Source of the DNA: Gemmatimonadaceae bacterium
Lineage (GTDB): Bacteria; Gemmatimonadota; Gemmatimonadetes; Gemmatimonadales; Gemmatimonadaceae
Assembly: GCA_035277485.1 (NCBI GenBank)
Contig: DATEKK010000226.1
Span: 28,740 to 92,739, forward strand
Length of the DNA: 64,000 nucleotides
Direction: 5' to 3'
The translations under genes were made by a program, and so were the position numbers. Every line of letters begins with the position of its first letter. Positions within the stretch are counted from its first letter, which is position 1. The notes under the pieces are model-generated. The model made no database searches. It worked only from the letters and a program-made list of their open reading frames with translations, and was not told the origin of the DNA. This document shows, piece by piece, positions 4,632 to 33,348 of the stretch.

Positions 4632-4638
4632 GCGCATC

Positions 4639-7399: not shown

Positions 7400-8650
7400 A
7401 TGCTGTCCGTCGCCGAGGCCGCCGCACGCATCATCGCCGACATCGCTCCGTTAGGCGCCGAGCGCGTCGCGCTGCTCGATTCGTTAGGCAGGGTGCTGGC
7501 GGCCCCGGTCCGGTCGCCGCTCACCCTGCCGGCGTGGGACAACTCGGCCATGGATGGCTACGCGGTCCGTGCGGATGACGTGCGCGACGCGCGCCCCGAC
7601 GCGCCGGTTTCGCTGCGCGTGCTCGAGACCGTGGCCGCAGGCGCCTTCCCGTCGCATCGCGTCGACACCGGTACGGCCACGCGCATCATGACCGGCGCGC
7701 CGATACCGGATGGCGCTGATGGCGTGATCCGCATCGAGGACACCGACGGCGGCACGGCGCACGTCGCCATCCGCGACGCGCGCGACGCGGGCCGCAACGT
7801 CAGGCACCGCGGCGAGGACATTGCCGCGGGCAGCACGGTGTTCGAGCGCGGGCAGCCGGTCGGCCCCGCGCAGGTGGGCGTCCTCGCGTCGATCGGCGCC
7901 GCCACCGTGGATGTGTACCGCCGCCCGCGGGTCGCGTTCTTCGGCTCGGGCGACGAGATCGTGGATCTCGATGGCCTGCCCGACGCCGTGGCCGGCCGCA
8001 AGGTCCTCACGTCCAACAGCTACACGCTCCACGCGATGATCCGCGCCGCCGGCGCCGAGCCGTTGAACCTGGGGCTCGCGCGCGATGACCCGGGCGAGCT
8101 GCGCGACCGCATCGCGCGCAGCACCGGCTGCGATCTGCTCATCACGTCGGCCGGCATCTCCGCGGGCGCGTTCGACTACGTGCGCGATGTGCTTACTGAG
8201 TTAGGCGTCGAGATGACCGTGTGGAGGGTGCGGATGCGGCCCGGCGCCCCGCTCGGCTTCGGGTGGCTGGGCAACCGGCCCTGGATCGGCCTGCCCGGCA
8301 ACCCGGTGTCGACCATGGTCACCTTCGAGTTGTTCGTGCGGCCCATGTTGCTCCGGATGCTCGGCCATACGCGCATCTACCGGCGTCCGGTGACGGTCAC
8401 GCTCGAGGAACCGATGACGATTACCGGTGCGCTCACGCACTTCCTGCGCGGCATCGTCACCGTCGCCGGAGACGGGACCATGACCGCGCGCCTGTCGGGA
8501 CCGCAAGGCTCGGGCGTGCTCACGTCGATGGCCCGGGCCAACGCGCTGCTCGTCATCCCCGAAGACCGCCCGCGCGTCGAGGCCGGCGAATCGGTGCACG
8601 CGCTGCTGCTCGGCGAAGACGCACAGTCGAGCGCCGTCTTCGCCCTGTGA
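7400..8650 (+). CDS. moeA: molybdopterin molybdenumtransferase
   Basis: Start taken at MLSVAEAAARI, 2 nt after the dacB stop; the ORF-track start at 7268 is an over-extension. Typical MoeA domains are present (PAWDNSAMDGYAV, SGDEI, GNPVS). Confidence 0.9.
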   Translation: MLSVAEAAARIIADIAPLGAERVALLDSLGRVLAAPVRSPLTLPAWDNSAMDGYAVRADDVRDARPDAPVSLRVLETVAAGAFPSHRVDTGTATRIMTGAPIPDGADGVIRIEDTDGGTAHVAIRDARDAGRNVRHRGEDIAAGSTVFERGQPVGPAQVGVLASIGAATVDVYRRPRVAFFGSGDEIVDLDGLPDAVAGRKVLTSNSYTLHAMIRAAGAEPLNLGLARDDPGELRDRIARSTGCDLLITSAGISAGAFDYVRDVLTELGVEMTVWRVRMRPGAPLGFGWLGNRPWIGLPGNPVSTMVTFELFVRPMLLRMLGHTRIYRRPVTVTLEEPMTITGALTHFLRGIVTVAGDGTMTARLSGPQGSGVLTSMARANALLVIPEDRPRVEAGESVHALLLGEDAQSSAVFAL

Positions 8651-9400: not shown

Positions 9401-11113
9401 TTACATGCTGCGATACTTGGCGCCGCTGCCGCCCTCGCGCGGCGTCCACCGCGGACCCACGTCGTCAGTCGCCTTGCAGTCCACGCAGTTCGCCGGACTC
9501 ACCACCAGGCGGTCTCCATCGCGTTCGTACACGCCGGCCGGACACAAGTGGGCGTAGAAGTCGGCCATCGCCGGCGGAATGTCCTGCCCAACGATCAGAT
9601 GCGATGGAATGTCGTCGCGCGTGGCGTTGCCGGAGCGGAACACCGCATCCAGCTTCGAGAACGTCAGCTTGCCATCCGGCTGCACGTGCGTCACGCTCTC
9701 GGCCGTGCGCGCGACGTCGGCATCCGCTTCCGACGTGAGGTGTCCGCCGGGGAACGCGCCGCGCGTGAGCGTCATGAGGCCCGCTTTGATCCCGCCGCCG
9801 TAAATGCCGCCGTGCTGGAATGCGAGCCGCATGTTGCGGCGTTCGTACAGGTCGCGCGTGATGTAGCTCTCTCGTACCATCTGGTCGTAGGGCGCGAGAG
9901 CCGCCGCCGATGTGTCCTGCTTCTTGAGCGCGTCGAAGATGGCGCGCGCCGCGAAGATCCCCGATTGCATCGCGTAGTGAATTCCTTTGAGCGACGCGAC
10001 CTCCACGAATCCCGCGGCGTCGCCGGTCATGATCAGGCCGTCCCCATACCGCCGCTCCGGAAGCGCCCAGTACCCGCCCTCGGGGATGGTTTTCGCCCCC
10101 CACTCGATCATCTCGCCGCCCTCGAGGTACGAGCGAAACAGCGGGTGCAGCTTGAGCCGCTGCAACAGCTCGTGCGCATCCAGCGACGCCTGCGGATAGT
10201 CGAGCCCCACCACGATGCCCACCGCGACCTGCTTGCCGCCTAACGGATACATGAAGCTGCCGCCGAACACGTCGTTGGGCAGCGGCCAGCCGAGCGTGTG
10301 GACCACGGCATCCAACGGACGCGTTGCCTCCCACAGCTCCTTCACGCCTAACGCAAACAGCGGCGGGTTGGGCGATGTGATGCCCCGCCACGCGCGATAC
10401 GCCTGCGTCAGCACGCCGCGCGTCCCTTCGGCCAGCACCGTCACCCGCGCGGTGAGATCCGTGGGCGGCGTGTACCCCGGACCGGGCGTCCCGTCGCGGG
10501 CCAGTCCCGACGGCGTCGTCCGCACGCCGATCACCCGCTCGCCCTCCACCAGGAGCGAGGCGACCGGGAACCCCGTGAACAGATTGACGCCCGCCGCCTC
10601 GGCCTTCTCGCCTAACCAGCGCACCATCTCGCAAATCGAGCCCACGTAGTTGCCGTGGTTGCGCATCGTGGGCGGTGTGGGCAGACGCAGCGCGCGCGAG
10701 CCGGTCATGAAATACACGCGCTCGCCCGTCACTGCGGCGCGGAACGGGAATTCGCGGTCCGGCATTCCCGGAAAGAGCGCGCGGAATGCCACCGGGTTCA
10801 CCACCGCGCCCGAGAGACAGTGCTCGCCTAACGCGCCGGCTTTCTCGAGCACGCCGATCTGGAGCTCGCCTAACGAACCGCCCGCCTCGGCGTCGGCGCG
10901 CGCGAGACGCGCCAGCTCGATCGCGCCCGCGAGCCCCGCCGGCCCGCCGCCCACGAACACCACGTCCATCGGCACCGCCTCGGCGTCGGGCGGCTCCGCC
11001 ACGATGAAACGATCCGTCGGAAGCGGCGGCTGGTACTGACCGGGGACGAGGGGAAGCGGTCGACCGGATGGCGTCATGAGCGGAGTGGAGTGTGAGGGCC
11101 GGCCGCTCACCAC
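9401..11113 (-). CDS. electron transfer flavoprotein-ubiquinone oxidoreductase
   Basis: FAD fold DVVFVGGGPAGLAGA. The C-terminal 4Fe-4S region has CPAGVY...CVDCKATD. An alternative ATG start lies at 11077. Confidence 0.9.
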   Translation of the reverse strand: MVSGRPSHSTPLMTPSGRPLPLVPGQYQPPLPTDRFIVAEPPDAEAVPMDVVFVGGGPAGLAGAIELARLARADAEAGGSLGELQIGVLEKAGALGEHCLSGAVVNPVAFRALFPGMPDREFPFRAAVTGERVYFMTGSRALRLPTPPTMRNHGNYVGSICEMVRWLGEKAEAAGVNLFTGFPVASLLVEGERVIGVRTTPSGLARDGTPGPGYTPPTDLTARVTVLAEGTRGVLTQAYRAWRGITSPNPPLFALGVKELWEATRPLDAVVHTLGWPLPNDVFGGSFMYPLGGKQVAVGIVVGLDYPQASLDAHELLQRLKLHPLFRSYLEGGEMIEWGAKTIPEGGYWALPERRYGDGLIMTGDAAGFVEVASLKGIHYAMQSGIFAARAIFDALKKQDTSAAALAPYDQMVRESYITRDLYERRNMRLAFQHGGIYGGGIKAGLMTLTRGAFPGGHLTSEADADVARTAESVTHVQPDGKLTFSKLDAVFRSGNATRDDIPSHLIVGQDIPPAMADFYAHLCPAGVYERDGDRLVVSPANCVDCKATDDVGPRWTPREGGSGAKYRSM

Positions 11114-11128: not shown

Positions 11129-12118
11129 TCAATGCGACTGTTTCGCCTTGCGCACCGCTTCGGTGAGCACCGGCAACACTTCGAGCACGTCGCCCACCAC
11201 GCCGTAGTCCGCGATCTTGAAGATGGGCGCCTCGCGATCCTTGTTGATCGCGACGATGGTCTTGGAGGTGCGCATGCCGGCCAGATGCTGGATCGCTCCC
11301 GAGATGCCGCACGCCACGTACAGATCCGGGCTCACCAACCGACCGGTCTGTCCGATCTGATCCGTGTGCGGACGCCACCCGTCGTCGGTTACCGCCCGCG
11401 TGGCGCCGACCGCCGCATTCCCGAACGCGCTCGCGAGCTCTTCGACCAGCTTGAAGTTTTCCGGTGCGCGGAGCCCGCGCCCGCCGCTCACGATCACCGG
11501 TGCCTCGCCCAGGTCGAGCTTGGCCGTGTTGCCGGCGAGCAATTCCTTGGGCACGACGCGCGCCGAGGCCGGGTCGATCGCGGGAGCGATCGTCTGCACA
11601 CGCGCCGTGCGCGGCGCGCGCGTCGCGGTCACCGCGCCCGGGCGCAGCGACAGCAGCACCGGCGTGCCGGTGATGGACAGCGTCGCAATCACCTTCCCCG
11701 TGTTCACCGGATGCCTGACGACGATCGCGTCGCCCGACGCCTCGAACGCTATCACGTCGGCGCCGAGCGCGACGCCTAACTTTGCCGCCACGCGGGGCGC
11801 GAGATCGCGGCCTTGCGCCGATGCGCTGAAGAACGCCGCGCGATACGAGCCGGCGCCTACGCGCGCCGCGGCCGTGGCGGCCGCCACCTCAGGCGAATAC
11901 AACGCCAGTCCCGGGTGCTCCACCACTTCCACCGCGTCGGCCCCGTGCGCAGCGACCAACTCGGCTTTCGCCGCCATGCCCGGCGCACCGATGATCAGCG
12001 CGTGCACCTCGCCGCCGCCCGTGGCGTCCGCCAACTGACGAGCCGCGGTCACCGCCTCGAGTCCGACACGCCGCAGCTCCCCGCTCCGCGATTCGACGAA
12101 TGCAAAGGTGTTCGCCAT
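11129..12118 (-). CDS. etfA: electron transfer flavoprotein subunit alpha
   Basis: 329 aa. Contains [19 protein letters not shown], typical of EtfA. Start overlaps the etfB stop by 1 nt. Confidence 0.9.
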
Positions 12119-12870
12119 CAGAGCACCTTCGCTTCCGTTTGCAGCAGCCGCACCAACTCCGGCACCGCTGCCGGACCTTCACCGATGATCCGCCCGCCCG
12201 TCCGCTCGGGCGGCAATTCCATTCTGATCACCTTCACGCGCCATTCTCCCACCTGCGCCGGTTTCACCTCGAGCGGTTTCTTTTTCGCCGCCATGATGCC
12301 CTTGAGCGACGGCAACCGCGGCCGCGCGATGCCTTCATCGATCGTCACCACCGCCGGCAGCGGAAACTCGAGCACCTCCGCTGCGCCCTCGAGCTCGCGG
12401 CGCGCCGTGCCCCGGCCGTTGGTAATCGTGAGCTGCGACGCCGCCGAAACGCATGGGAGTCCCAACAATTCCGCGGTCATCGGCCCGACGCTCTGATTCG
12501 CTGCGTCGATCGCCATCCGGCCGAAGAGCACGAGATCGTAGCCGCCGCCCTTGAGCTCGTCCGCCAGCACGCGCGCCAAGGCCAGCGCATCCGCCGGCAC
12601 CGAATCGGCCTTGAGGTGCACCGCCTTGTCGGCGCCCATGCTCAGCGCCTTGCGCAGCGTTTCCTGGACCGTGTCGGGGCCCAGCGAGATGACCGTCACC
12701 TCGCCCGCGCCCTCCTTTTCCTTGAGCTGCAGCGCGGCTTCCACCGCGAATCCATCGAAATCCGCGATGTCGAACTTCACACCCGTCTCATCGACGGACG
12801 TCCCATTCGCCGCGATCTTGAAGCGCGTCTCCATGTCGGCGGCGCGCTTGATGCACACGGCCATCTTCAC
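12118..12870 (-). CDS. etfB: electron transfer flavoprotein subunit beta
   Basis: 250 aa, beginning MKMAVCIKRAADMETRFKI and containing LVLFGRMAIDAANQSVGPM. Confidence 0.9.
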   Translation of the reverse strand: MKMAVCIKRAADMETRFKIAANGTSVDETGVKFDIADFDGFAVEAALQLKEKEGAGEVTVISLGPDTVQETLRKALSMGADKAVHLKADSVPADALALARVLADELKGGGYDLVLFGRMAIDAANQSVGPMTAELLGLPCVSAASQLTITNGRGTARRELEGAAEVLEFPLPAVVTIDEGIARPRLPSLKGIMAAKKKPLEVKPAQVGEWRVKVIRMELPPERTGGRIIGEGPAAVPELVRLLQTEAKVL

Positions 12871-12955
12871 CGCGCGTACTCCTTGCGTTTGAGTTCGACA
12901 ACAACAGAGCGGCGGCCCGACCCCGCACTCCCATCACGGCGCGCCGCTCGGGCGG

Positions 12956-14128
12956 TCACTGGAACGCGTTCAGGCCCGTGATCGCTTGGCCTAACACAAG
13001 CGTGTGCACGTCGTGCGTCCCCTCGTACGTGTACACGCTCTCCAGATTCGCCATGTGGCGCATCGATGCGTACTCGGCCAGAATCCCGTTCGCGCCCAAC
13101 AACCGGCGCGCCTCCCGCGCGATGTCCGTCGCCATGCTCACGTTGTTCCGCTTCGCCAACGAGACCTGTTGCGGCGTCATCGTTCCCGCATCCTTGAGCC
13201 GCCCCAGGTGCAGCGTGAGCAGCTGCCCTTTCACGATTTCCGTCAACATCTCGGCGAGCCGCGCCTGCTGCAGCTGAAACGCGCCGATCGGCTTGCCGAA
13301 CATCACCCGGTTGCACGCGTACGACGCCGCTTCCTCGTAGCACGCCATCGCCGCGCCCACGCTGCCCCACGCAATGCCGTACCGCGCCTGCGTCAGACAC
13401 ATGAGCGGACTCTTGAGTCCACCGCTCTTCGGCAGAATCGCATCCGCCGGCACGTGCACGTCCTGCATCACCAGCTCGCTCGTATCCGAGGCGCGGAGCG
13501 ACAATTTGCCCTTCTGGTCGCGCGCCGTGAACCCGGGCGCGTTAGTCGGCACCACGAATCCGCGAATGGAGCGCTCGTCCTTGTCGCCGTTCGTTTTCGC
13601 CCACACCACCGCCACCTGCGCCGTCGAGCCGTTGGTGATCCACATCTTGGCGCCGTTCAACACCCAGCTGCCATCCGACTGCTGGCGCGCCATCGTGATC
13701 ATGCCCGCCGGATTCGACCCGTAGTCGGGTTCCGTTAGGCCAAAACATCCGATGATCTCGCCGTTGGCCATCTTCGGCAGATAGCTGCGTTTCTGCTCGT
13801 CGCTCCCGAACGCGAAGATCGGATACATCACGAGCGCGCCCTGCACCGACGCAAACGATCGCACCCCCGAGTCGCCGCGCTCGAGCTCCTGCATGATCAA
13901 TCCATACGACACGTTGTTGAGTCCCGCGCACCCGTACTCCTCCGGCAGATTCGCGCCGAACACGCCGAGCGACGCGAGCTCGGGTACCAGCTCGCGGGGG
14001 AAACGACCTTCCACATAACAATCGCCGATGATCGGCAGTACACGCTCGTCCACGAAGCGGTGCACACTGTCCCGCACCGCGCGCTCTTCTTCGGACAGCG
14101 CGCTGTCGATGGCATAGAAGTCTGTCAT
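12956..14128 (-). CDS. gcdH: acyl-CoA dehydrogenase, glutaryl-CoA dehydrogenase-like
   Basis: 390 aa. Contains GCFGLTEPDYGSNPAGM and YTYEGTHDVHTLVLG. It lies directly upstream of etfBA. Confidence 0.8.
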   Translation of the reverse strand: MTDFYAIDSALSEEERAVRDSVHRFVDERVLPIIGDCYVEGRFPRELVPELASLGVFGANLPEEYGCAGLNNVSYGLIMQELERGDSGVRSFASVQGALVMYPIFAFGSDEQKRSYLPKMANGEIIGCFGLTEPDYGSNPAGMITMARQQSDGSWVLNGAKMWITNGSTAQVAVVWAKTNGDKDERSIRGFVVPTNAPGFTARDQKGKLSLRASDTSELVMQDVHVPADAILPKSGGLKSPLMCLTQARYGIAWGSVGAAMACYEEAASYACNRVMFGKPIGAFQLQQARLAEMLTEIVKGQLLTLHLGRLKDAGTMTPQQVSLAKRNNVSMATDIAREARRLLGANGILAEYASMRHMANLESVYTYEGTHDVHTLVLGQAITGLNAFQ

Positions 14129-14164
14129 GGCGCGAAAACTACTCGGTACGCCAAGACTTCGGTA

Positions 14165-14890
14165 TCAGATCGCCGCGCGCACGTCGCCGTGCCAGGCACT
14201 CTCCATCGAGCGCCGCGCCCGCGGCTCAATACCCAGCTCGCGCGCCTTCGCGCGAAAGGCGCGCCCGTGATCGAGCGGCAATCCTCGCTCGGCCTGCCAC
14301 TGATGCACCATCTCGTGCAGCAGCGTGTGTAGCACTTCCGTCCACGGCTCGCGCCGGATGTGCGACCGGCTGATCGCGATCTCGGGCGCCAGGCCGTCGG
14401 CCGCCACCGTGTATTGCCCCAGCCGGCTTCGCATCCGCCGAGACACCGCGATGTCGACGGGTCGCAACGATCCATCGAAATAACGCCGGTTGTACTCCTC
14501 GTGCGCCTTCGCGAGCTCGGCGAGCAGCACGGCATCTTCCCGGCGCGGGCGCGCCCGCCGCCGAGGACGTCGAGCTCCCTCGTCGCGCGGCGCGTGCTCG
14601 AGGATCACGCGTTCGGCCTCGCGCCGCGCGCGACGCGTCCGGCTCCCCACGAACCCGACGATCGCCCGCCAGACCTCTGGCGGCGCGGCCAGATACGCCT
14701 CGTGCACCCGCAGCACACCACCGCGATAGCTCACCATCACCGTTCGATTCTTCGTGAGCTCGCACCGCTCGATCCGATGGTCCAGGCCGATCGCGTGCAG
14801 GCGTCGCAATAGCGTCGCGCCGTCGCGCGGGGCTGCATCGAACGCCAGCTCCAGTTGGGTGGCAGCCCCGCGCAGCAGTCGCCCGATCAC
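14165..14890 (-). CDS. SprT-like zinc metallopeptidase domain protein
   Basis: GTG 14890 overlaps the stop of the upstream phosphoesterase (GTGA). Contains HTLLHEMVHQW (HExxH) with an SprT-like context YFDGSL...RLGQY. The Arg-rich 5' extension in the ORF track overlaps the neighbouring gene. Confidence 0.6.
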   Translation of the reverse strand: MIGRLLRGAATQLELAFDAAPRDGATLLRRLHAIGLDHRIERCELTKNRTVMVSYRGGVLRVHEAYLAAPPEVWRAIVGFVGSRTRRARREAERVILEHAPRDEGARRPRRRARPRREDAVLLAELAKAHEEYNRRYFDGSLRPVDIAVSRRMRSRLGQYTVAADGLAPEIAISRSHIRREPWTEVLHTLLHEMVHQWQAERGLPLDHGRAFRAKARELGIEPRARRSMESAWHGDVRAAI

Positions 14891-15708
14891 CGCTCGAACG
14901 TTTGCGTGGGCCCGTCGACGAATGCGACGTCGCGCGACGACCATACGAGCGTGTGCACGTCGATCCGCCCCGGATCCAGCGCGATCACGTTCACCGACGA
15001 CGGCCGGCCGCCGCGCGACCGGTCCGACACCGTCCCCGCGGTCGACACCACGGTCCCGCCGCGCGAGTGCTCGACGAACTGAATGGCTTCCTGATGGTCG
15101 TGCCCGCACATCACGAGGTCCACGCCTAACGCCTCGAATGCGCCTAACGCTCGGCGCGGGTGCGCGAGGCCGTAGCGCCGCGACAGCTGTCCTTTGAGCG
15201 GATTGTGGTGCATCACGATCGCGCGCCGGTCGCCGGCCGGCGACGCCTCGAAGACGCGGCGCGCGTGATCGACCTGCCGCGCCTCGAGATTTCCCACCAC
15301 GCCGATGTCGCGCGGATTCCACGTGAGCGTGTGGAGCTGCACGCCGTGCGCCGTGTTGAGCCCCACGAACGTCACGCCCGGAACGTGCAGCACCGGCTCC
15401 AATTCCTTCGAGATGTAGCGCCGATAATCCGCGAACAACCCGCTGCCGAGACCCAAGCCTAACGGCGCGCGCCACCACTTCACATCGTGATTGCCCGGCA
15501 CGACGATGGTCGCGCTCACGCGGGCGGCGTCGCGCAGAAATTTGCGTGCGCGCTGGAACTCGCCTGCCCTCGCACGCTGCGACATGTCGCCGGAGATAGC
15601 CACCACGTCGAAGTGTCGCGTCTCTATCAGTTGTTCAATGGCATCGACCTGCTCGGGGACAGCCGGCTTTCCGAAATGCACATCGGAGACGTGAAGAACC
15701 GTCGTCAC
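14887..15708 (-). CDS. metallophosphoesterase (calcineurin-like)
   Basis: Contains VLHVSDVHFG, ISGDMS, VPGNHD and MHHNP...GHDH motifs. Confidence 0.8.
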   Translation of the reverse strand: MTTVLHVSDVHFGKPAVPEQVDAIEQLIETRHFDVVAISGDMSQRARAGEFQRARKFLRDAARVSATIVVPGNHDVKWWRAPLGLGLGSGLFADYRRYISKELEPVLHVPGVTFVGLNTAHGVQLHTLTWNPRDIGVVGNLEARQVDHARRVFEASPAGDRRAIVMHHNPLKGQLSRRYGLAHPRRALGAFEALGVDLVMCGHDHQEAIQFVEHSRGGTVVSTAGTVSDRSRGGRPSSVNVIALDPGRIDVHTLVWSSRDVAFVDGPTQTFER

Positions 15709-15783
15709 GACGCCCTCGCGGCGGCCCGGGCCGCAAGGCGCATCGCGTCGATGCGCGCTATCGGAATCGCCATGCGCTCCTGC

Positions 15784-16437
15784 TCACGGGGCGGACACCA
15801 GGTCGGCCAGACGCTCCGCGAAGCTCGCGGCAAGTCCACGCGAAAATTTCGAGGCCGGGTCGCTCGAGACATCGGCCATCCACATGATGCGCGCTTGGCG
15901 TGCATCGAACACGACCAGGCGAACCACGGCGCGCTCTTCGCCGGGACCCGCGCCGACAAATCGCACTTCGATGGGAAACAACACGTACCGGCAATCATCC
16001 TCGAGCGCCACCAGAGTGCGGAGTTGAGAGGCCAGCGGCTCCGGCACCATGTCCGGAACATTCTTCATTGGTGGACGGAGCCATTCCGCCGCCAGGTCGT
16101 ACACGTCCGGCGCATACGGCGCGTTTCGCCGAGCGTTCTCCGCCAACTGGTGCGGGAACACCCACATCCGCCCAATCCGGTCTCGATCGCGCAGCGCGAA
16201 CGCGATCTCGCCGTCTACATCATCCAGAAACGCCTTCCGGTCGCTGATCTGCGCCGCCCAACCCAACGAGTCGTCCGTTCGCAGATAATGTGTCGGAATG
16301 ACCAGCACGCGGCGCGTCGCATACGGCGCGAGCGGACGTCCGGCCGTCGGTGAGGTCTCATGTAATGACTGTGACGACACCCGCACGGCGCCAACGCACA
16401 TGGCCACCATGCCGACGACCATCAGAAGCGGTTTCAC
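15784..16437 (-). CDS. hypothetical exported protein
   Basis: GTG start before the hydrophobic segment KPLLMVVGMVAMCVGAV. The ORF-track start at 16689 would overlap the cstA promoter and start. No family recognised. Confidence 0.4.
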   Translation of the reverse strand: MKPLLMVVGMVAMCVGAVRVSSQSLHETSPTAGRPLAPYATRRVLVIPTHYLRTDDSLGWAAQISDRKAFLDDVDGEIAFALRDRDRIGRMWVFPHQLAENARRNAPYAPDVYDLAAEWLRPPMKNVPDMVPEPLASQLRTLVALEDDCRYVLFPIEVRFVGAGPGEERAVVRLVVFDARQARIMWMADVSSDPASKFSRGLAASFAERLADLVSAP

Positions 16438-16558
16438 GAAAGTCCTGGGCTGAGATGGGAGAAACTTACCTTGATGGAGACGATCCGTGCAGCACCGCGT
16501 CTCCGGCGCGCGCTCCCAACTCTTGTCGGCGGCTGGTGCGACGCGCAGAATCTCGGGC

Positions 16559-18592
16559 ATGAAGAAGGTCCTGTCCGCGACAGTCTGGATCGCAGTCGCC
16601 TGCTTGGGAGCCGGCTCGCTCGCCTGGCTCGCGCTGTCGCGCGGTGAAACCGTCAACGCCGCGTGGCTCATCACCGCGGCCGTGTGCACGTTCGCCGTCG
16701 GGTACCGGTTCTACTCCAAATTCATCGCCGCGCGCGTGTTCGCGCTCGACGCGCGCAGGCCGACCCCGGCAGTGCGCCTCGAGGACGGCCGCGACTTCGT
16801 CCCCACCAATCGGTGGATCGTGTTCGGTCACCACTTCGCGGCGATCGCCGGCCCGGGGCCGCTCGTTGGGCCGACACTCGCCGCCCAATTCGGTTTTCTC
16901 CCCGGCGCGCTCTGGATCATCATCGGCGTCGTGCTCGGCGGCGCCGTTCAGGACTTCGTGATCCTGGCCGCTTCCGTGCGACGCGACGGCCGCACGCTGG
17001 GCCAGATGGCCAAGGATGAGATCGGTCCGACCGCCGGCTTCACCGCGCTCGTGGCCGTCCTCGGCATCATGATCATCCTGATCTCGGTGCTGGGGCTCGT
17101 GGTGGTCAACGCGCTCAAGGCCAGCCCGTGGGGCACGGTGACGATCGGCCTCACCATCCCGATCGCGCTTCTGTTAGGCATCTACCTGCGATGGATCCGC
17201 CCGGGACGCGTGCTCGAGGCGACCCTGTTGGGACTCGTGCTCCTCGCCGTTGCCCTGTACGCGGGCCAGTGGGTAGCCGCCAACCCGTCGCTCGCGCCGC
17301 TCTTCACGCTCGACGCGAAGACGCTCGCCATCCTCGTCATGGCCTACAGCTTCGCCGCGTCGGTCGTACCGGTGTGGCTGCTGCTCGCGCCGCGCGACTA
17401 CCTGTCGGCCTTCGTGAAGATCGGCGTCGTGGTGGCGCTTGCGTTAGGCATCGTGATCGTGCTGCCGCCGCTCCAGATGCCGTCGCTCACGCGGTTCGTC
17501 GACGGCACCGGCCCCATCTTCGCCGGCAAAGTATTTCCATTCGCGTTCATCACCATCGCCTGCGGCGCCATCTCGGGCTTCCACGCGCTCATCGCATCGG
17601 GCACCACACCCAAACTGCTCGAGCGCGAACCCGACGCGCGTCCGATCGGCTATGGCGGCATGCTGATGGAAGCGCTCGTCGGCGTCATGGCCCTCATCGC
17701 CGCCTGCGTGCTGACGCCCGGCGTCTACTTCGCGATCAATGCGCCGTCGGGCCTACTCGGACCAACCGCCGCGAGCGCCGCGCACGCAATCTCGGCGTGG
17801 GGCTTCACGCTCGACCCGGCCGCGATGCAACACCTCGCCTCCCAGGTCGGCGAAACCTCACTCCTGTCTCGTACCGGCGGCGCGCCGAGTCTCGCCGTCG
17901 GCATGGCGCAATTGTTCACGGGATTATTGGGCGGCTCCGAGGCGATGGCGCTCTGGTATCATTTCGCCATCATGTTCGAGGCGCTCTTCATCCTCACCAC
18001 GCTCGATGCGGGCACCCGGGTCGGCCGCTTCATGCTCCAGGACCTGGGCCGTCACGTCTGGGAACCGTTCGGCCGCGTGTCGTGGTATCCTGCCGTCGTC
18101 CTGTCCAGCGCAACCTTCGTGGCGATGTGGGGCCACTTTCTGTGGCAGGGCGTCATCGACCCGTTAGGCGGCATCAATTCTCTCTGGCCGCTGTTCGGCA
18201 TCTCCAACCAGTTGCTGGCCGCGGTCGCGCTGTGCGTCGGGACCACGGTGATCATCAAAAACGGGAAGGCGCGCTACGCCTGGGTCACACTCGCGCCGCT
18301 CGCCTGGCTCGTGGTGGTCACGCTCACCGCGGGCTGGCAGAAGATCTTCTCGCCAAGTCCGCGCCTCGGCTTTCTTTCGCACGCGCGCACGCTCGCGCAG
18401 GGAGCGCAGGCCGCCGACACCGGCCGCCTCATCTTCAACGACCGGCTCGATGCCGCGGTCGCCGCGTTCTTCATGATCGCCGTCGTCGTGATTCTGTTCG
18501 AGTCGGCGCGCGAATGGTTTCTCGTGTTGCGCGGTGACAGACCGGCCGCCAGCACCGAAGTGCCGTTCGAGCCGACCGCCCTCGCATCGTGA
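16559..18592 (+). CDS. cstA: carbon starvation protein A (peptide/pyruvate transporter family)
   Basis: Starts [17 protein letters not shown]. Polytopic, with [17 protein letters not shown] and [15 protein letters not shown]. Confidence 0.9.
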
Positions 18593-18611
18593 CTCAACCT
18601 TCGCTTTGACC

Positions 18612-20993
18612 ATGCGCCCCCGCCCTCGCATCCGTCCGCACCCGCTTGTGACGCTCGTCCTCGTGGCCGCCGCCGCGTTCTCGCCGGCTCCGTTAGGCGC
18701 ACAGGATTCGTCCACCTTCGCGCTCACCATCCCGAGCATCATGCGCGGCGACGAAGTCGTCGGCCGGATGCCCGAGCGCATCCGATGGTCGCCCGACAGC
18801 CGCTGGATCTACTTCTACTGGCTGCCGCCCGGCAGCGATTGGCGCGACCCGCTCGCGCCGTACCGCGTCCGCGCCCAGGCCGGGGCCAAGCCCGAGCGCC
18901 TAACGGACGCGCAGATGGACAGCTTGGGCCCCATCGTCGAGCCCGGCAGCCTGTCGCACGATGGCCGCCTGCGCGCCGTCGCCTACCAGGGCGACATCTA
19001 CGTCATCGATCTCAAGACGCAGACGGCTCGGCGCCTCACCAACACGCAGGCGCGCGAAGCCGACCCGCAATTCGGCGTCGGCGATGATCTCGTCTACTTC
19101 ACGCGCGACGACAACGTGTTCGCGGCCGATCTGCGTTCCGGGCTCGTCCAACAGCTCACCGACGTGCGCCCCGGCTCCGCGCCCAAGGAAGACTCGGCCA
19201 ACACGCCCATGCAGAAGGCGCTCGAGGGCGACCAGAAGCGCCTCTTTCAGGTCATCCGCGACGAATATCGCGCCGACAGCATCGCGAAAGCGGAGAAAGC
19301 CCGCGCCGAGGGCATTCGCGGCAAGCCGCTCTATCTGCTCAAGGACGAGCGCGTGAGCCAGCTCGCCGTTTCGCCTAACGGAAAAGCGGTACTGCTCATC
19401 ACCCGCATCAACTCCGAGCGCTCGCGCTCCACCGAAGTGCCCAAGTGGGTCACCAAGAGCGGCTACGTCGAAGACATCAAAGGCCGCGACAAAGTGGGCG
19501 ACAGCCAGGACTCGGGCCGCGTCGCGCTCGTGAGCCTGCCATCCGGCAACGCGCGCTGGCTGCACGCGATACCCGGCGACTCAGTAGCCAACCCCGGCCT
19601 CATTCGGATGCTCGGCTGGAACGACGATGGGTCGCGCGCGCTCCTCTTCACCGTCCGGTCCGACTACAAGGAGCGCTACCTCGAGACTGTCGCCGCCGAC
19701 GGCCGCATGGACACCGTGGACGTCCTGCGCGACACGGCCTGGATCGAAGGTCCATGCTTCGGTTGTGGCGGCTGGTACGATAACGACAAGCGCCTGTGGT
19801 TCGTCTCCGAGGCCGACGGTTGGGCGCACATCTACACGGTGAACGCCGACGGCTCGGACCGTACGCAGCTCACCAAGGGCAAATGGGAAGTGCTCGACGC
19901 GGACCTCTCGCCCGACAAGAAGTGGTTCTGGATGCATACGAGCGAGCCGTCGCCGTACGAGCGCCAGTTCTATCGCATGGCCGTCACCGGCGGCGCACGC
20001 GAGCGCATCACGGAAACCAAAGGCGGGCACGACGTCACCGTTTCGCCTAACGGTCAGGTGCTGGCCGACGTGTACTCGACGTCCAACCGGCCGCCCGAGC
20101 TGTTCGTCGCGCCGTTCCGCTCCGGTTCGAGCATGGCACAACTCACCGTGTCGCCCACCAAGGCGTGGCTCGCGTACCACTGGGTCGACCCCCAGATCAT
20201 CCAGATCCCGGCCTCCGACGGCGTGATGGTTCCCGCGCGCATCTACCGCCCGCAGGACGTGGGCGCTCAGCCTAACGGAGCCGCCGTGATCTTCGTCCAC
20301 GGCGCCGGCTACCTGCACAACGTCGTCGACTATTGGTCCAGCTACTATCACGAGTACATGTTCAACCAGTTCCTCGCGACCAAGGGCTACGTCGTCTTGG
20401 ACGAGGACTATCGCGGCTCCGCCGGCTACGGGCGCGATTGGCGCGTCGCCGTCTACCGGCACATGGGCGGACGCGATCTCCAGGATGAAGTCGATGCCTC
20501 CCGCTACCTCGGCAGCAAGTTCGGCATCCCGCCCGAGCGCGTCGGCATCTACGGCGGGAGCTACGGCGGCTTCATGACCCTCATGGCCATGTTCACCGAA
20601 CCGAAGCACTTCGGCGCCGGCGCGGCACTCCGCGCGGTCACCGACTGGGCGCACTACAACCACTGGTACACGTCGCGGATTCTCAACCTGCCCGACAAGG
20701 ACACGGTCGCGTACCACCAGTCGTCGCCGATTTACTTCGCCCAGGGCCTCGAGGGACCGCTGCTCATGTGCCACGGCATGGTCGACACGAACGTCGAGTT
20801 CGAGGACATCGTTCGCCTAACGGAACGCCTCATCGAGCTCGGCAAGACCAACTGGCAGCTCGCGCCGTATCCGGTGGAGAATCACGGGTTCGTGCGGCCC
20901 TCGTCGTGGACCGACGAGTACTCGCGCATCTTCGCGCTGTTCGAGCGGACGATCGGCCACAGCAGTGCGGCCGTTACATCGGGGGCGAAATGA
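18612..20993 (+). CDS. S9 family serine peptidase with N-terminal beta-propeller (secreted)
   Basis: Signal peptide LVLVAAAAFSPAPLGAQ. C-terminal hydrolase with GGSYGGFM (GxSxGG) and HGMVDTNV. Confidence 0.85.
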   Translation: MRPRPRIRPHPLVTLVLVAAAAFSPAPLGAQDSSTFALTIPSIMRGDEVVGRMPERIRWSPDSRWIYFYWLPPGSDWRDPLAPYRVRAQAGAKPERLTDAQMDSLGPIVEPGSLSHDGRLRAVAYQGDIYVIDLKTQTARRLTNTQAREADPQFGVGDDLVYFTRDDNVFAADLRSGLVQQLTDVRPGSAPKEDSANTPMQKALEGDQKRLFQVIRDEYRADSIAKAEKARAEGIRGKPLYLLKDERVSQLAVSPNGKAVLLITRINSERSRSTEVPKWVTKSGYVEDIKGRDKVGDSQDSGRVALVSLPSGNARWLHAIPGDSVANPGLIRMLGWNDDGSRALLFTVRSDYKERYLETVAADGRMDTVDVLRDTAWIEGPCFGCGGWYDNDKRLWFVSEADGWAHIYTVNADGSDRTQLTKGKWEVLDADLSPDKKWFWMHTSEPSPYERQFYRMAVTGGARERITETKGGHDVTVSPNGQVLADVYSTSNRPPELFVAPFRSGSSMAQLTVSPTKAWLAYHWVDPQIIQIPASDGVMVPARIYRPQDVGAQPNGAAVIFVHGAGYLHNVVDYWSSYYHEYMFNQFLATKGYVVLDEDYRGSAGYGRDWRVAVYRHMGGRDLQDEVDASRYLGSKFGIPPERVGIYGGSYGGFMTLMAMFTEPKHFGAGAALRAVTDWAHYNHWYTSRILNLPDKDTVAYHQSSPIYFAQGLEGPLLMCHGMVDTNVEFEDIVRLTERLIELGKTNWQLAPYPVENHGFVRPSSWTDEYSRIFALFERTIGHSSAAVTSGAK

Positions 20994-21187
20994 TGAGCCT
21001 AACCCTCCGCGACCGTCTCGCCGCGGCCGCGCGCGTCGCGCGCACCATTGTGGGCGCGCCGGACTACGAGCGCTACCTCGCCCACATGCGGCAGCGGCAT
21101 CCCGCCCAACGGCCGCTCACGCGCGACGAATTCGCGCGCGCCCGCATGGACGATCGATACAACCGGCCCGGCGCGCGCTGCTGCTGA
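20990..21187 (+). CDS. ybdD: YbdD/YjiX family small protein (DUF466)
   Basis: 65 aa. Contains GAPDYERYLAHMRQRHP...LTRDEFARARMDDRYN and ends RCC. ATGA overlap with the peptidase stop. Confidence 0.8.
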   Translation: MMSLTLRDRLAAAARVARTIVGAPDYERYLAHMRQRHPAQRPLTRDEFARARMDDRYNRPGARCC

Positions 21188-21199
21188 TACGCAAGGAAA

Positions 21200-21451
21200 G
21201 GGAAGCGGGAAGCGCTCGCTGACGCTCGCTGGGGGAAGCGCTGCGCTGGGGGAAGCGGCGGCGACGCCGCCTGGGGGATCGGAACAACATCAGTGTCTCT
21301 GGCTGGAGAGTGCCGGTTTGCGCGGCGTCGCTCCCGGGACTCCAGTCGTGCAGACCATCGATGTTGTTCCACTCCCTCAGGCGGCGTCGCCGCCGCTTCC
21401 CCCAGCGCAGCGCTTCCCCCAGCGAGCGTCAGCGAGCGCTTCCCGCTTCCC
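21200..21451. repeat. 252-bp foldback element: 92-nt inverted arms (74+11 nt identical) around a 68-nt centre
   Basis: The left arm 21200..21291 is the reverse complement of the right arm 21360..21451, apart from 3 mismatches in a 7-nt patch. Each arm contains four GGAAGCG units and the palindrome GGCGGCGaCGCCGCC. The element sits between the convergent stops of ybdD and the beta-propeller gene. Confidence 0.9.
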
Positions 21452-21460
21452 TCGTTGTCC

Positions 21461-22555
21461 CTAGTGCGAGATGACCACGCCCCACGGCGAATCCCCCGCC
21501 GGAATCGTCTTCACGACTTTGTTCGTCGCCGCATCGATGATCGCGATGTCGTTGGACGGTCCGTTCGCCGTGTAGATCTTCGACCCGTCCGCCGTTACCG
21601 CGACGCCCCACGGACGCTTGGGGTCCGGGATCGTCGCCACCACGGAATCGTTCGCCGTCGCGATCACCTCCAACGTCGCGCCGCGCCCCGTCGTGATGTA
21701 CACGAACTTCCCGTCCGGCGAGATCGCTGACCCCATTGGCTTCGCGCCCGGCGTCGTCTTCGTGAGATCGAGCGTCTTGAGCACCTTGTGGGTCTTCACG
21801 TCGACGACCGACACGTTGCCGCCCACCTCCGCCGGCACGTAGCCCTTCGACCCGTCGGGCGCGAAGATCACCGAGCGGGGACGCTTCCCGACCTTGATCG
21901 TCGCAACCGCTTTGTTCGATGCGACGTCGATCACCGTGACGGTTCCCTTCCCCTCGCTCGTCACCCACGCCTCTTTGCCGTCCGGCGTGATCTTCACACC
22001 CTCAGGCTCTGAACCCACTTTCACCGTCGCGACCGATTTCCCGTCGGACATGTCGAGCACCGTCGCGGTGCCGGCGTCTTCGTTAGACACGTAGATGAAC
22101 TTCCCGTCCGGTGTGATGTCGAAGTTCTCGGGGTCGTGACCGCCCTGGAGACGCCGCACGCTGTCGGTCGACAGGTCCACCAAAGCAATGCCATCCTTGG
22201 ACCGGTCCGGCGGCGGCAGCTTCGACTCATCCACGCCCGGCCCGCCGATCGGCGACCCGCTCACCGCCACCACCAGCGTGTTGCCGTCCGGCGTTAGGCG
22301 CACGCCGCGCGGCCGCTGGCCGGCGTCGATCGTTTTCACGACGGAGTCTTTCGCGGCGTCGATCACCGTGATCTTGTTGCCGCGCTCGTCGGAGACGTAC
22401 ACGAGCATCGACGGCGCACTCGCCGCCGCGGGCGCCGCCGCCGTCGATTCGGCCCCCGCCGCTGGCTTCTTCTCGCCGCCCGAGCACGCCGCCACCATCA
22501 ACCCGCCCGCCACGATGCCACTGCCTAACGAAAGGCCGCGCCACGTTCCACGCAT
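21461..22555 (-). CDS. YVTN-type beta-propeller repeat lipoprotein
   Basis: ATG at 22555 precedes GLMVAACSGG (lipobox-like). About 40-residue repeats follow, such as YVSNEDAGTATVLD, VTSEGKGTVTVIDV and YTANGPSNDIAIID. Confidence 0.7.
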   Translation of the reverse strand: MRGTWRGLSLGSGIVAGGLMVAACSGGEKKPAAGAESTAAAPAAASAPSMLVYVSDERGNKITVIDAAKDSVVKTIDAGQRPRGVRLTPDGNTLVVAVSGSPIGGPGVDESKLPPPDRSKDGIALVDLSTDSVRRLQGGHDPENFDITPDGKFIYVSNEDAGTATVLDMSDGKSVATVKVGSEPEGVKITPDGKEAWVTSEGKGTVTVIDVASNKAVATIKVGKRPRSVIFAPDGSKGYVPAEVGGNVSVVDVKTHKVLKTLDLTKTTPGAKPMGSAISPDGKFVYITTGRGATLEVIATANDSVVATIPDPKRPWGVAVTADGSKIYTANGPSNDIAIIDAATNKVVKTIPAGDSPWGVVISH

Positions 22556-22613: not shown

Positions 22614-24203
22614 CTACGCGAGCCCCATTCCCCACCGGGCCAACGCCGTCGGATATCCGCCGTATCGTAGCAGCTCGCTATGGAATCGCAGCAGCGAAAA
22701 CCCGCCATCGCCGCCCCACGCGCTGCGCGCATCATCACGAAGCCGCTCGATCTCGCGCCGCCCAACGACGAAACATGACATGAGCGTCGGATGCGCCGCC
22801 ACGCGCATCACCTCCGCACGCGCCGCGGCCTCGTCCATGCCGAGCTCATCGCGCAAACGACGCTCGGCCGCCCACAGGTGCAGGGTCTTGGTGTGAACCG
22901 CCACATCGATGATCGCGCGAAGCGTTCGCCATAGGACATCGCGCGCGTGAAGCAGCCGGGCGGCCGGCGTCGCGAAGAACCCCGCGTCCGCCATCATCCC
23001 CTCGCAGTAATACGCCCACCCCTCGCGCGCCGCGTCGCTCCACAACACGCGTCGCACCACGCGATCCAATTCATTCGCGCTCACGGTGTGCTGATGATGC
23101 CCGGGAACGGCTTCGTGCACCACCACGCTCGCGATGTCCGACCTCCGATGCGCGCACGTCGCCGCCGAGTGCGGCATCGTGATGTACAGCGTGCCCGCGT
23201 GCGATGGCGCGAATGCGCCCGGTCCGTCGTACGCCGTGAACGGCACCAGCGGCTGCAAGTACGCCGGCGTAGCCCGGACGCGAACCGGCGGCGTCACCAC
23301 GTGCACCAAGCCGTGCTCGGCTGCGAACCGCCGCGCCTCGTCCATTGCGTCCGCGTAGGCGCCGAACAGCGATGCCGAAGGCGGCGCGTCGCCACTCACG
23401 CGCTCGACCACCTCGCGCCATGGCGTGCCCGGCGCAACGGCCGCGGCCGCGGCCTCGACGCCCTGCTGTGCCTCCGCATACGCGCGCTCTGCCCAACGGA
23501 GCAGTTGATCCGCGCCGTCCTGGATCATGTGTGCCGTGTGCAGCCGCCGCTCGAACACGTCGCGTCCCACGCCCACGGTGTCGCGCGCGCGCTCCTCCAT
23601 CATCGCCAGCGCATCGCCGAACCGCTCGAGCGACTCGATCGCCGCGTCGTGCGCCGATGCCACCTCCGCATCGGTGCCTAACGGACCGAGCGCCTCACGC
23701 ACCTCCTCGCGGAGCAGGGCCAGCCCGCCCGGCAGCATTGCCGCCGCCGTGCCTAACAATGGGCGTTCGGGTTGCACCAGTGCGTCGGCCGCGGCGCTCA
23801 GAAACTCCGGCAGCGCGCGCAGCCGCGACACCAGAGCCACCGCGCGCTCGCGCGCATCCACGTCATCGGCGGCCAGCCGATACAAACCGTCCAGCGCATG
23901 GCGCACGTGAAAGGTGGGATCATGGGCGAACGGGCGCTCGCGCTCGAGCCACGATTGGAGCTGCCGCGCGTCGTGCAGCACCGCCGTCTGATCGATTTCG
24001 TCGTCCAGCGTATCCGCGGACGCTTCCTCGAGCGCGCCGGTGTAGCTGCGTAAGGCGGCAATGTGCGCGCGCACCGACACGGCGTCGAACGCGCCATACA
24101 TCCCGTCGAGCTCGCGCCGGCCCGCGCGCGTCCCCTCGACGGGATCGATCCGGTATCGAAGGTCGAGATATCCCTCGAAGACCTGGGCGAGCGGTGCCGT
24201 CAC
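22614..24203 (-). CDS. DUF885 family protein (gluzincin-like, HEAVPGHH)
   Basis: GTG 24203 overlaps the upstream stop (GTGA). Contains HEAVPGHHQH and EGWAYYCE. The ORF-track start at 24881 is a shadow extension across the neighbouring gene. Confidence 0.7.
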   Translation of the reverse strand: MTAPLAQVFEGYLDLRYRIDPVEGTRAGRRELDGMYGAFDAVSVRAHIAALRSYTGALEEASADTLDDEIDQTAVLHDARQLQSWLERERPFAHDPTFHVRHALDGLYRLAADDVDARERAVALVSRLRALPEFLSAAADALVQPERPLLGTAAAMLPGGLALLREEVREALGPLGTDAEVASAHDAAIESLERFGDALAMMEERARDTVGVGRDVFERRLHTAHMIQDGADQLLRWAERAYAEAQQGVEAAAAAVAPGTPWREVVERVSGDAPPSASLFGAYADAMDEARRFAAEHGLVHVVTPPVRVRATPAYLQPLVPFTAYDGPGAFAPSHAGTLYITMPHSAATCAHRRSDIASVVVHEAVPGHHQHTVSANELDRVVRRVLWSDAAREGWAYYCEGMMADAGFFATPAARLLHARDVLWRTLRAIIDVAVHTKTLHLWAAERRLRDELGMDEAAARAEVMRVAAHPTLMSCFVVGRREIERLRDDARSAWGGDGGFSLLRFHSELLRYGGYPTALARWGMGLA

Positions 24204-25450: not shown

Positions 25451-25539
25451 GGTCACCGGTGAAGGGCTCCGTCCAAGAGATCGTCGGCTGCCATGCAATA
25501 TACCCTTGCGTATCCCCGATCCCGAGATCAATTGAAGAC

Positions 25540-32343: not shown

Positions 32344-33348
<1,005 letters not shown>

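Follow-up and report, generated by a model that had tools for sequence, protein, structure and literature searches.

What keeps the heptamer GTTAGGC, more than once per kilobase, in the genes of a GC-rich bacterium that has to use its rarest codons to write it? We examined this in a 64-kb stretch of DNA (the window; 65.9% GC; positions 28,740 to 92,739 of contig DATEKK010000226.1, assembly GCA_035277485.1), which TopA homologs assign to the Gemmatimonadaceae and whose nearest relatives are soil metagenome-assembled genomes with up to 97% identity; the source organisms are uncultured soil Gemmatimonadaceae. We found that a strand-symmetric, frame-blind, and lineage-specific force writes one 7- to 9-mer against codon preference, and does so in two clades. 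The original prediction on this DNA, made from its letters and translations, had held that a nucleotide word is overlaid on ordinary coding sequence and overrides codon bias, and this is borne out by codon tables and by orthologs. The background is unremarkable: a self-trained codon model yielded 52 gene calls covering 89% of the window, to which we afterwards added an open reading frame (ORF) overlooked by the caller, Sel_put, at 20993 to 21186(+) (64 aa; Pfam PF04328, YbdD/YjiX-like; E = 4e-23). The gene content is that of an ordinary housekeeping chromosome and includes iPGM, MoeA/MobB, ETF, ETF-QO, CstA, ATP synthase, a Ser/Thr kinase, GcvT, ArgF, HslUV, XerC/D, TrmFO, TopA, AroC, a type IV minor-pilin operon, and a secretin. 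Scans of the window for tRNAs, Rfam families, and tandem repeats recovered nothing connected with GTTAGGC.

Abundance and codon usage of GTTAGGC

GTTAGGC occurs 77 times in the window (34 copies on the + strand and 43 on the - strand; 1.2 per kb), and CGTTAGGC ranks among the commonest 8-mers. Because the core of the word is AT rich and the genome is 66% GC, every frame in which it can be read needs rare codons. Sense copies of the form xxG-TTA-GGC (Leu-Gly) number 47; antisense copies are read as CCT-AAC (Pro-Asn) in 11 cases and as CTA-ACN (Leu-Thr) in 12; one copy is read as GTT-AGG (Val-Arg, at 49981), and one provides the TAG stop (4629 to 4631) of a PTPS/queD-like gene. Four copies are intergenic (33360, 35803, 43720, and 50425), and that at 29778, upstream of the ATP-synt_C domain, probably lies in the non-coding leader of atpE (GTT-AGG in the long ORF). 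The recount agrees with the original prediction for the two antisense classes, the Val-Arg copy, and the queD stop. It had further given 49 Leu-Gly copies, and 49 TTA-GGC pairs do exist, but two of them lack the 5' G, which leaves 47 copies; its statement that no copy falls in the frame giving an internal stop is true, but is so by construction for any word containing TAG or TAA. The examples that it cited were correct where checked (the pair at 15124/15142 in ALGAFEALGV, moeA, the kinase loop RLGSGTF, AMLGAG of atpE, and the queD stop), as were, on a spot check, its TTA-GTC and TTA-GCC sites.

The codon tables reveal how strongly the word departs from the usage around it. TTA makes up 66 of the 1776 Leu codons in the window, and 49 of these 66 precede GGC, while 55 stand in the G-TTA-G context to which TTA had been said to be nearly confined. 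Outside Leu-Gly, it writes 15 of 1593 Leu codons (0.9%), as against 0.7% of Leu in relatives lacking the word, so that TTA is at background level rather than being generally common regardless of context. TTA nevertheless writes 34% of the 145 Leu-GGC pairs; CCT-AAC writes 13 of 24 Pro-Asn pairs, with CCT overall accounting for only 6.6% of Pro codons, and CTA-ACG writes 15 of 107 Leu-Thr pairs. Markov models of order 1 to 2 predict about 2.3 copies, versus the 77 observed. Shuffling of synonymous codons within the coding sequences (CDS) gave 2.3 +/- 1.6 copies and never more than 11 in 500 shuffles, versus 71 observed in CDS. Word-less relatives (585 kb) have 0.87 copies per 64 kb. The enrichment is roughly 35- to 90-fold.

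A signal at the level of DNA

We defined occupancy as the number of copies relative to all sites where GTTAGGC is writable without a change of protein. It reaches 11/16 (69%) for [G-ending]-Pro-Asn (antisense) and 11/24 (46%) for [C/G/R/S]-Leu-Thr (antisense), compared to 47/150 (31%) for [G-ending]-Leu-Gly (sense) and 2/49 (4%) for Val-Arg-[C..] (sense). The majority of copies are sense TTA-GGC because Leu-Gly is common, that is, through availability and not higher occupancy. The further the preferred codons are from the word, the lower the occupancy: one substitution is required for CCC/CCG to CCT and for CTC to CTA, two for CTC to TTA, and three for GTG-CGC to GTT-AGG. The flanks carry additional information, namely, C at -1 (50/77), T at -3 (36/77), and a non-T at +1, and none was found beyond positions -3 to +1 of the 77 window copies. 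C(-1) and T(-3) are favored in every frame class and also in the non-coding copies, despite falling at differing codon positions. What is recognized is thus approximately T-N-C-GTTAGGC-(G/A) in double-stranded DNA, and GTTAGGC acts as a signal in the DNA itself rather than through codon pairs.

Along the window, the gaps between copies (mean, 832; median, 548) are consistent with random, Poisson-like placement, with no excess of close pairs or of long gaps, no clustering, and no regular spacing. Occupancy is uniform between genes (chi-square p = 0.99), the highly expressed ATP synthase subunits, HslU, and TopA included. Non-coding DNA, about 10% of the window, has 4 to 5 copies and is neither enriched nor depleted, and no inverted pairs or terminator hairpins are formed by copies in the window. 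The contrast in GC3 skew between + and - genes suggests that the - strand is the leading strand, replication direction being deduced from skew only; with 43 copies on this inferred leading strand and 34 on the other, there is no replication-strand polarity. For comparison, Escherichia coli Chi has a strand skew of about 75%, and the leading-strand share of GTTAGGC (43/77, or 56%) lies about 3.9 standard deviations below such a skew.

Distribution across lineages

We compared the window with 80 loci of about 4 to 22 kb from relatives (designated by L numbers), in which the word-bearing relatives are represented by seven segments of 15 to 22 kb, and placed them on a single-gene (topA) neighbor-joining tree. 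GTTAGGC has a density of 4.9 to 8.5 per 10 kb in the window's own clade (clade A: L001-L005, L016, and L065) and of 7.9 in the homologous region of the window. There are 0 copies in the sister lineages L006, L007, and L009, and the word is absent from almost all others of the 80 loci. It is met again in a distant clade B, at 5.4 (L041) and 5.8 (L057) per 10 kb, with 1.8 in the clade-B relative L033, and its coding frames there are the same as in clade A. Between the two clades, the similarity of topA is 68%. The sites are different: of five clade-B sites in the alignment, just one is also a clade-A site, and where 7 of 7 to 8 clade-A genomes keep a copy, clade B has TCG-CCC-AAC or GAG-CTC-GGC. 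Within the latter, L041 and L057 have 4/5 aligned copies in common, whereas L033 and L057 have only 1/9. Since the clade-B copies occupy other sites than those of clade A, the same word has been built up twice, independently.

Metagenome contigs, a biased sample in that they were ascertained by carriage of two GTTAGGC copies, include L209, L226, L210, L244, and L309 (71 to 74% GC), with dispersed copies at about 9 to 14 per 10 kb; L209 has 12 within 10.5 kb, read in the coding frames used in the window. None of these dense contigs is homologous to window genes, and their GC content is far above that of clade A; they may represent a third word-bearing lineage. Another contig, L235 (2.96 kb), has 16 copies and only short, odd ORFs, its composition being one of G/C blocks broken throughout by TA (GCTACC, CCTAGG, GGTAGC, and CGTTAGGC); it is a separate compositional oddity, possibly from a phage or other genome with modified DNA. 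A scan of viral contigs for paired copies gave only tandem arrays and chance matches and is uninformative on the density of the word in phages.

Origin and persistence of the copies

Sisters lacking the word provide the ancestral states. At the window copy sites, the outgroup orthologs align without indels and have the preferred codons CCG-CTC-GGC, TCG-CCC-AAC, and GGC-CTC-ACG/ACC; the word-less relatives as a whole write CTC-GGC, CCC/CCG-AAC, and CTC-ACG/ACC at the same sites. In the small sample of 23 clade-A sites with outgroup information, 13 keep the outgroup-majority peptide and 10 are replacements at variable residues (e.g., P-V/I-G to P-L-G, R-R-T to R-L-T, and G-M-T to G-L-T), so that the expectation of synonymous change relative to relatives holds for 13 of the polarized sites but not for the 10 that involve an amino acid replacement. 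Intermediates such as TTG-GGC occur in some clade-A members. These alignments show that the word is written by point substitution wherever the protein tolerates it, mostly through synonymous switches to the rarest codons TTA, CTA, and CCT. That the basal member L005 has the fewest copies suggests a progressive accumulation. A dispersed repeat of the repetitive extragenic palindrome (REP) or miniature inverted-repeat transposable element (MITE) type was rejected, as the ortholog alignments show substitutions and no insertions; there are likewise no flanking repeats, conserved flanks, or hairpins beyond the core around the window copies.

Once present, the copies appear, from the same comparisons, to outlast neutral synonymous sites by far. 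Identity at 4-fold sites between the window and its clade-A relatives is only 45 to 65%, near saturation, and 46 of 73 aligned window copies are kept; sister pairs at 82 to 89% nucleotide identity have 8/10, 10/11, and 4/5 copies in common. If three to four synonymous positions evolved neutrally, a retention of roughly 5 to 25% would be expected. Part of the retention could come from parallel reoccupation of saturable sites. Whether by retention or by reoccupation, a persistent directional force acts on the word. It is surrounded by a halo of one-off variants in excess of expectation (GTTGGGC, 36 versus 7; GTTAGTC, 12 versus 0.9; GTAAGGC, 7 versus 1.1), in which changes at positions 3, 4, and 6 are enriched and those at position 5 are depleted (1 versus 5.9 expected). 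Such a halo is the pattern expected of a balance between drive and decay. A hotspot of 5-methylcytosine deamination was rejected as the source of the word, since the supposed source, GTTGGGC, is enriched and not depleted.

A proposed drive of the uptake-sequence type

As to the nature of the force, we tentatively favor a molecular drive of the DNA uptake sequence type, to which we give somewhat less than an even chance. Cells would preferentially take up or recombine fragments bearing the word, probably via type IV pilus-dependent competence. Alleles gaining a copy would be over-transmitted and those losing one replaced, and copies would accumulate until their codon and protein costs balance the drive. 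The independent appearance of the same word in a second clade would imply that clades A and B have a sequence-specific determinant in common, be it a receptor or some other protein that binds DNA, probably through horizontal transfer. In favor of a drive of this type, we count the density of about 1 per kb, strand symmetry, lineage restriction, frame-dependent occupancy, conservation across species, and the variant halo, together with the use of poorly conserved residues as sites (10 of the 23 polarized ones). The window also encodes type IV pilus minor pilins and a secretin.

Several observations weigh against this. Only 4 to 5 copies are non-coding, with no concentration in terminators or inverted pairs, unlike DNA uptake sequences (DUS) and uptake signal sequences (USS), and non-coding DNA is no richer in copies than coding DNA. 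The encoded peptides show no expansion, Leu-Gly occurring 7.3 times per 1000 aa in clade A versus 8.3 in the outgroups, and Leu-Gly, Pro-Asn, and Leu-Thr dipeptides not being inflated relative to the word-less relatives. Full-text literature searches recovered nothing on natural competence in Gemmatimonadota, and no candidate receptor, methylase, or nuclease linked to the word was recovered. Further, an association of the minor-pilin operon with the word was rejected, as L010, L012, and L013 carry the operon without the word. Located as a variable insertion between argF and gcvT, this operon occurs in clade A as well as these three loci and is absent from L007, L014, L051, L053, and L073.

In the window, the operon spans 45023 to 49214(-) and encodes a GspH/FimT-like protein, an N_methyl pilin, the product of an unannotated 368-aa gene, and a PilX_N protein; its two large genes (1047 aa) have zero Leu-Gly, versus 5.6 expected. 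The clade-B locus L041 has three tandem PilX-like paralogs at 12679 to 16506, directly 3' of topA, with a common N terminus ...LPMVLGAITLIGTLIAGVMYLATQDYRVGAN...; a search with one of the three recovered no Pfam family.

We would class GTTAGGC as a hyper-abundant genomic word and as no more than a candidate DNA uptake sequence, its copies not forming terminator pairs. It is possible, if rather doubtful, that we are dealing with an uptake-type "self" watermark outside the Proteobacteria with horizontally transferable specificity or with an undescribed, sequence-specific biased conversion that writes a 9-mer across whole genomes against codon bias.

Alternative explanations

We weighed four rival explanations. 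The word might be the binding or recognition site of an abundant chromosomal protein, each copy being under weak selection, be it as a Chi-like "self" mark against a nuclease or defense system or as a nucleoid-organizing or loading site. A single recognizing protein would suit the extended asymmetric motif, conservation well above that of neutral synonymous sites, and an even, random distribution along the DNA; a transferable DNA-binding protein would suit the same word in two clades, and very large soil populations could respond to weak per-site selection. Yet the lack of replication-strand skew (43:34) contradicts the Chi and KOPS versions, and a genome would be heavily burdened if selection had to act on thousands of sites one by one. 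To our knowledge, the density and enrichment of Chi, KOPS, matS, Noc, and SlmA-type sites are far below those of GTTAGGC, with its 1.2 copies per kb and an about 88-fold enrichment achieved via the rarest codons. We consider this explanation unlikely. A HIP1-like origin, in which the word is the target of a methyltransferase, a restriction-modification system, or a nicking/repair system and is made by biased mismatch correction or gene conversion, strikes us as quite unlikely as well. Methylases of Type IIG, Type III, and the BREX type typically target asymmetric words of 6 to 7 bp; such systems move horizontally, which would account for the presence of one word in both clades, and the halo is position dependent (position 5 depleted; 3, 4, and 6 enriched). 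Restriction sites, however, are normally avoided and not enriched, and the annotated genes of the 64-kb window include no DNA methylase, Vsr, or nuclease. Moreover, Vsr-type repair alters one base (T:G to C:G), whereas the sites here arise at several positions, for instance by CTC to TTA (two steps) or by V/I/R to L, and the commonest neighbor, GTTGGGC, is enriched rather than depleted. HIP1 itself remains the precedent for a coding-embedded, hyper-abundant word tied to methylases (10.64898/2026.06.24.733823).

As an exact match to the 7-bp core consensus of integron recombination sites (attC/attI core, GTTRRRY; inverse core, GCCTAAC) (PMC8876359), GTTAGGC could mark such core sites, and one word-bearing metagenome contig, L272, is a genuine attC cassette array. 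The window copies, however, stand singly and in frame within conserved housekeeping genes; they arose by substitution without indels; only one (-,+) pair lies within 150 nt, versus about 2 by chance, both of its members being in frame in a single gene; and the window has neither an integrase nor cassette structure, all of which makes this origin very improbable. Scarcely credible is selection at the level of translation, whether for the TTA-GGC codon pair or for off-frame "ambush" stops. It can appeal to the 47 of 72 coding copies that are sense TTA-GGC and to the fact that all coding copies place TAG or TAA off-frame on the coding strand. But a larger share of the accessible sites is filled in the antisense frames than in the sense frame, copies occur in non-coding DNA, the same flanks are preferred whatever the frame, TTA does not exceed background unless the full word is present, and off-frame stops are obtainable far more cheaply than by a fixed 7- to 9-mer. 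A bldA-type regulation by TTA was rejected in addition, as the codon is found in most housekeeping genes.

Comparison with known systems

The DUS of Neisseriaceae and the USS of Pasteurellaceae are likewise short asymmetric words present at about 1 per kb in equal orientations, lineage specific and missing in relatives, conserved between related species, and accompanied by one-off variants; they lie in coding DNA in particular frames and at tolerant residues, in organisms encoding a type IV pilus apparatus (features paralleled by GTTAGGC: PMC2817400; PMC2346458; 10.1101/2025.10.24.684340). Published USS and DUS in coding DNA show frame bias, occupy poorly conserved residues, and roughly double the encoded peptides (PMC2817400), and about half of the known uptake sequences are located in terminators (10.1101/2025.10.24.684340). 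Their defining trait is that competent cells favor DNA bearing the word, through a cognate receptor such as the minor pilin ComP. GTTAGGC differs in belonging to a different phylum, in its unrelated sequence, in the lack of enrichment in terminators or inverted pairs and of peptide doubling, and in being the same in two non-sister clades, whereas DUS/USS dialects diverge vertically. Recent surveys hold uptake sequences to be confined to Neisseriaceae and Pasteurellaceae (10.1101/2025.10.24.684340), and our full-text literature searches found no earlier report of the GTTAGGC word or of uptake sequences in Gemmatimonadota. HIP1 (GCGATCGC) of cyanobacteria is also a hyper-abundant word of 7 to 8 bases that lies in genes, overrides codon usage, and is conserved across species; it is, however, palindromic and a target of the methylases DmtA and DmtC, in contrast to the asymmetric GTTAGGC, for which no methylase is known. 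The function of HIP1 is debated, and roles in uptake or transformation have recently been proposed (10.64898/2026.06.24.733823).

Chi and KOPS share with GTTAGGC the character of lineage-specific, over-represented oligomers (5 to 8 bases) recognized by a DNA-processing machine, but they combine strong polarity with modest enrichment and frequent codons, as opposed to a 43:34 distribution, about 88-fold enrichment, and the rarest codons. The E. coli Chi word itself, GCTGGTGG, has 14 copies with an 11:3 strand skew in the 21.7-kb locus L078 and five copies (1:4) in the window; in L078, it is a candidate Chi-like polar word of another Gemmatimonadaceae lineage. The integron attC/attI core offers the identical heptamer and inverse core, from which the window copies differ in lacking a paired inverse core, hairpin, and cassette boundaries and in being substitutions in conserved genes. 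In L272, by contrast, GCCTAAC...GTTAGGC hairpins of 59 to 135 nt recur every 0.5 to 1 kb over positions 545 to 6313, with z-scores down to -5.5.

It has long been debated whether uptake words originate through drive or through selection, and sequence-specific uptake has been established in only two proteobacterial families. The present system offers a different phylum, word-less sisters that give ancestral states directly, a second independent accumulation, and accessible sites that are 31 to 69% saturated; it makes testable the time of the word's origin, its codon and protein cost, and the gene carrying the specificity. GTTAGGC also marks its lineage strongly, which is of use in binning these soil genomes and in recognizing foreign DNA within them, and, if it is an uptake signal, would provide a handle for the genetic manipulation of Gemmatimonadota.

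Copies in the window

The copies are given here in order, with the strand of GTTAGGC in parentheses and the encoded tripeptide; those ending in LG are sense TTA-GGC copies, while PN and LT denote antisense CCT-AAC and CTA-ACN. The first, at 29-35(+), is a VPN copy in the gene at 2-757(-). It is followed by 3371-3377(+) (GCG-TTA-GGC, ALG) in the iPGM gene (1917-3491), 3706-3712(+) (AAG-TTA-GGC, KLG) and 4156-4162(+) (ACG-TTA-GGC, TLG) in the gene at 3488-4186, and 4627-4633(+), which supplies the stop of the PTPS/queD-like gene (4203-4631). The S13 peptidase gene (5791-7398) has 6117-6123(+) (QLG) and 6783-6789(+) (RLG), and moeA (7400-8650) has 7450-7456(+) (PLG), 7483-7489(+) (SLG), and 8200-8206(+) (ELG). 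All those in the ETF-QO gene (9401-11002[-]) are on the - strand, at 10238-10244 (PLG), 10346-10352 (ALG), 10610-10616 (WLG), 10826-10832 (ALG), and 10868-10874 (SLG), as are 11774-11780 (KLG) in etfA (11129-12118[-]) and 12989-12995 (VLG) in the acyl-CoA dehydrogenase gene (12956-14128[-]), the latter also having 13734-13740(+) (GGC-CTA-ACG, GLT). The locus from which the original prediction set out, a metallophosphoesterase gene (14887-15708[-]), has 15124-15130(-) and 15142-15148(-), which are 18 nt apart and both ALG, and 15457-15463(-) (PLG).

In cstA (16487-18592), the copies are 17173-17179(+) (LLG), 17443-17449(+) (ALG), and 18163-18169(+) (PLG). The S9 peptidase gene (18606-20993) combines 18692-18698(+) (PLG) with the antisense copies 18898-18904(-) (CGC-CTA-ACG, RLT), 19373-19379(-) (TCG-CCT-AAC, SPN), 20045-20051(-) (SPN), 20270-20276(-) (QPN), and 20815-20821(-) (RLT), and the Sel_put ORF has 20997-21003(-) (AGC-CTA-ACC, SLT). 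Next come 22293-22299(+) (RLT) and 22523-22529(-) (SLG) in the beta-propeller gene (21461-22555[-]), 23676-23682(-) (PLG) and 23751-23757(-) (LLG) in the DUF885 gene (22614-24203[-]), 24521-24527(-) (VLG) and 24680-24686(-) (ALG) in the HMGL-like gene (24200-25456[-]), 26181-26187(-) (VPN) in the M20 peptidase gene (25540-26769[+]), and 26824-26830(-) (TLG), 26977-26983(+) (GPN), and 27646-27652(-) (RLG) in the nucleotidyl transferase gene (26791-27780[-]). Among the ATP synthase genes, that of subunit b (28807-29388[-]) has 29350-29356(-) (VLG), that of subunit c (atpE) has 29659-29665(-) (MLG), with 29778-29784(-) in its probable leader, and that of subunit a (29927-30895[-]) has 30768-30774(+) (RLT).

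The MoxR ATPase gene (32344-33348) has 33183-33189(+) (VLG) and is convergent with the Ser/Thr kinase gene (33371-35224[-]); between the two lies the intergenic copy 33360-33366(-), and within the latter lie 33704-33710(-) (LLG), 34193-34199(-) (RLG, in the glycine loop RLGSGTF), and 34259-34265(-) (SLG). After the intergenic 35803-35809(-), the AAA_16 gene (35845-39003) contains 37527-37533(+) (RLG), 38318-38324(-) (RLT), 38652-38658(+) (RLG), and 38988-38994(+) (ELG); the HD-domain gene (39024-40361[-]) contains 39198-39204(-) (ALG), 39270-39276(-) (PLG), 39543-39549(-) (ALG), and 40128-40134(+) (APN); and the sigma-54 activator gene (41633-43198[-]) contains 41804-41810(+) (LPN) and 42566-42572(-) (RLG). 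The intergenic 43720-43726(+) precedes 44094-44100(-) (KLG) and 44415-44421(+) (GPN) in gcvT (43782-44891[-]).

For much of the rest, outgroup states are available. A minor-pilin gene (48223-48627[-]) has 48575-48581(+) (GLT; outgroups, GMT), and the OTCase gene (49487-50398[-]) has 49981-49987(-), read as GTT-AGG-CAG (VRQ; outgroups, VKQ or VRQ). Beyond the intergenic 50425-50431(+), hslU has 51726-51732(+) (SPN), present in 7/7 clade-A relatives and TCG-CCC-AAC in the outgroups; xerC/D has 53382-53388(-) (PLG), an amino acid replacement of P-V/I-G of the outgroups, and, at its N terminus, 53934-53940(+) (LPN), found in the window only; and trmFO has 54204-54210(+) (RLT), where the outgroups vary. 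The topA copy, 56076-56082(-) (PLG), is present in 7/8 of clade A and reads CCG-CTC-GGC in the outgroups. In aroC, 58855-58861(-) (SLG) is accompanied by 59108-59114(+) (RLT), a replacement of RRT of the outgroups. The gene at 60170-62719(-) has 61521-61527(+) (GLT), and the secretin gene (62673-63998[-]) has 62851-62857(+) (GLT; outgroups, GGC-CTC-ACC/G) and 63243-63249(-) (ALG; outgroups, GCG-CTC-GGC or ACG-ATC-GGC).

Other repeats

Dialects of the word in other Gemmatimonadaceae were rejected, as the candidates proved not to be dispersed words but either tandem arrays of 7-bp units, arranged in inverted pairs, or sequences repeated along with a protein domain. The arrays are intergenic, occur in many Gemmatimonadaceae loci, often as two arrays in inverted orientation (with a 14-nt unit in L076), and have a heptamer that varies by lineage (CTAGACC, CCCTCTA, ACGGTAG, AAGCGGG, ACTGACC, etc.); they resemble the STRR heptamer repeats of cyanobacteria. 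We located them in L073 (9475 to 9560 and 15947 to 16020), L057 (16918 to 16950 and 20792 to 20830), L063 (10645 to 10730), L076 (7193 to 7460), L059 (8193 to 8260), L018 (16707 to 16830), L038 (4425 to 4460), and L007 (17766 to 17850) and noticed none in the window. The end of locus L075 has a cluster of long poly-C runs (9 to 19 nt) at 12381 to 12456, possibly an assembly-end artifact. In the window, the intergenic region between the Sel_put ORF and the beta-propeller gene contains, at 21199 to 21452, a 93-nt inverted repeat (97% complementary; 68-nt spacer) made of 17-nt tandem units (CGCTGGGGGAAGCG...), which may represent a large hairpin or an element of the MITE type.

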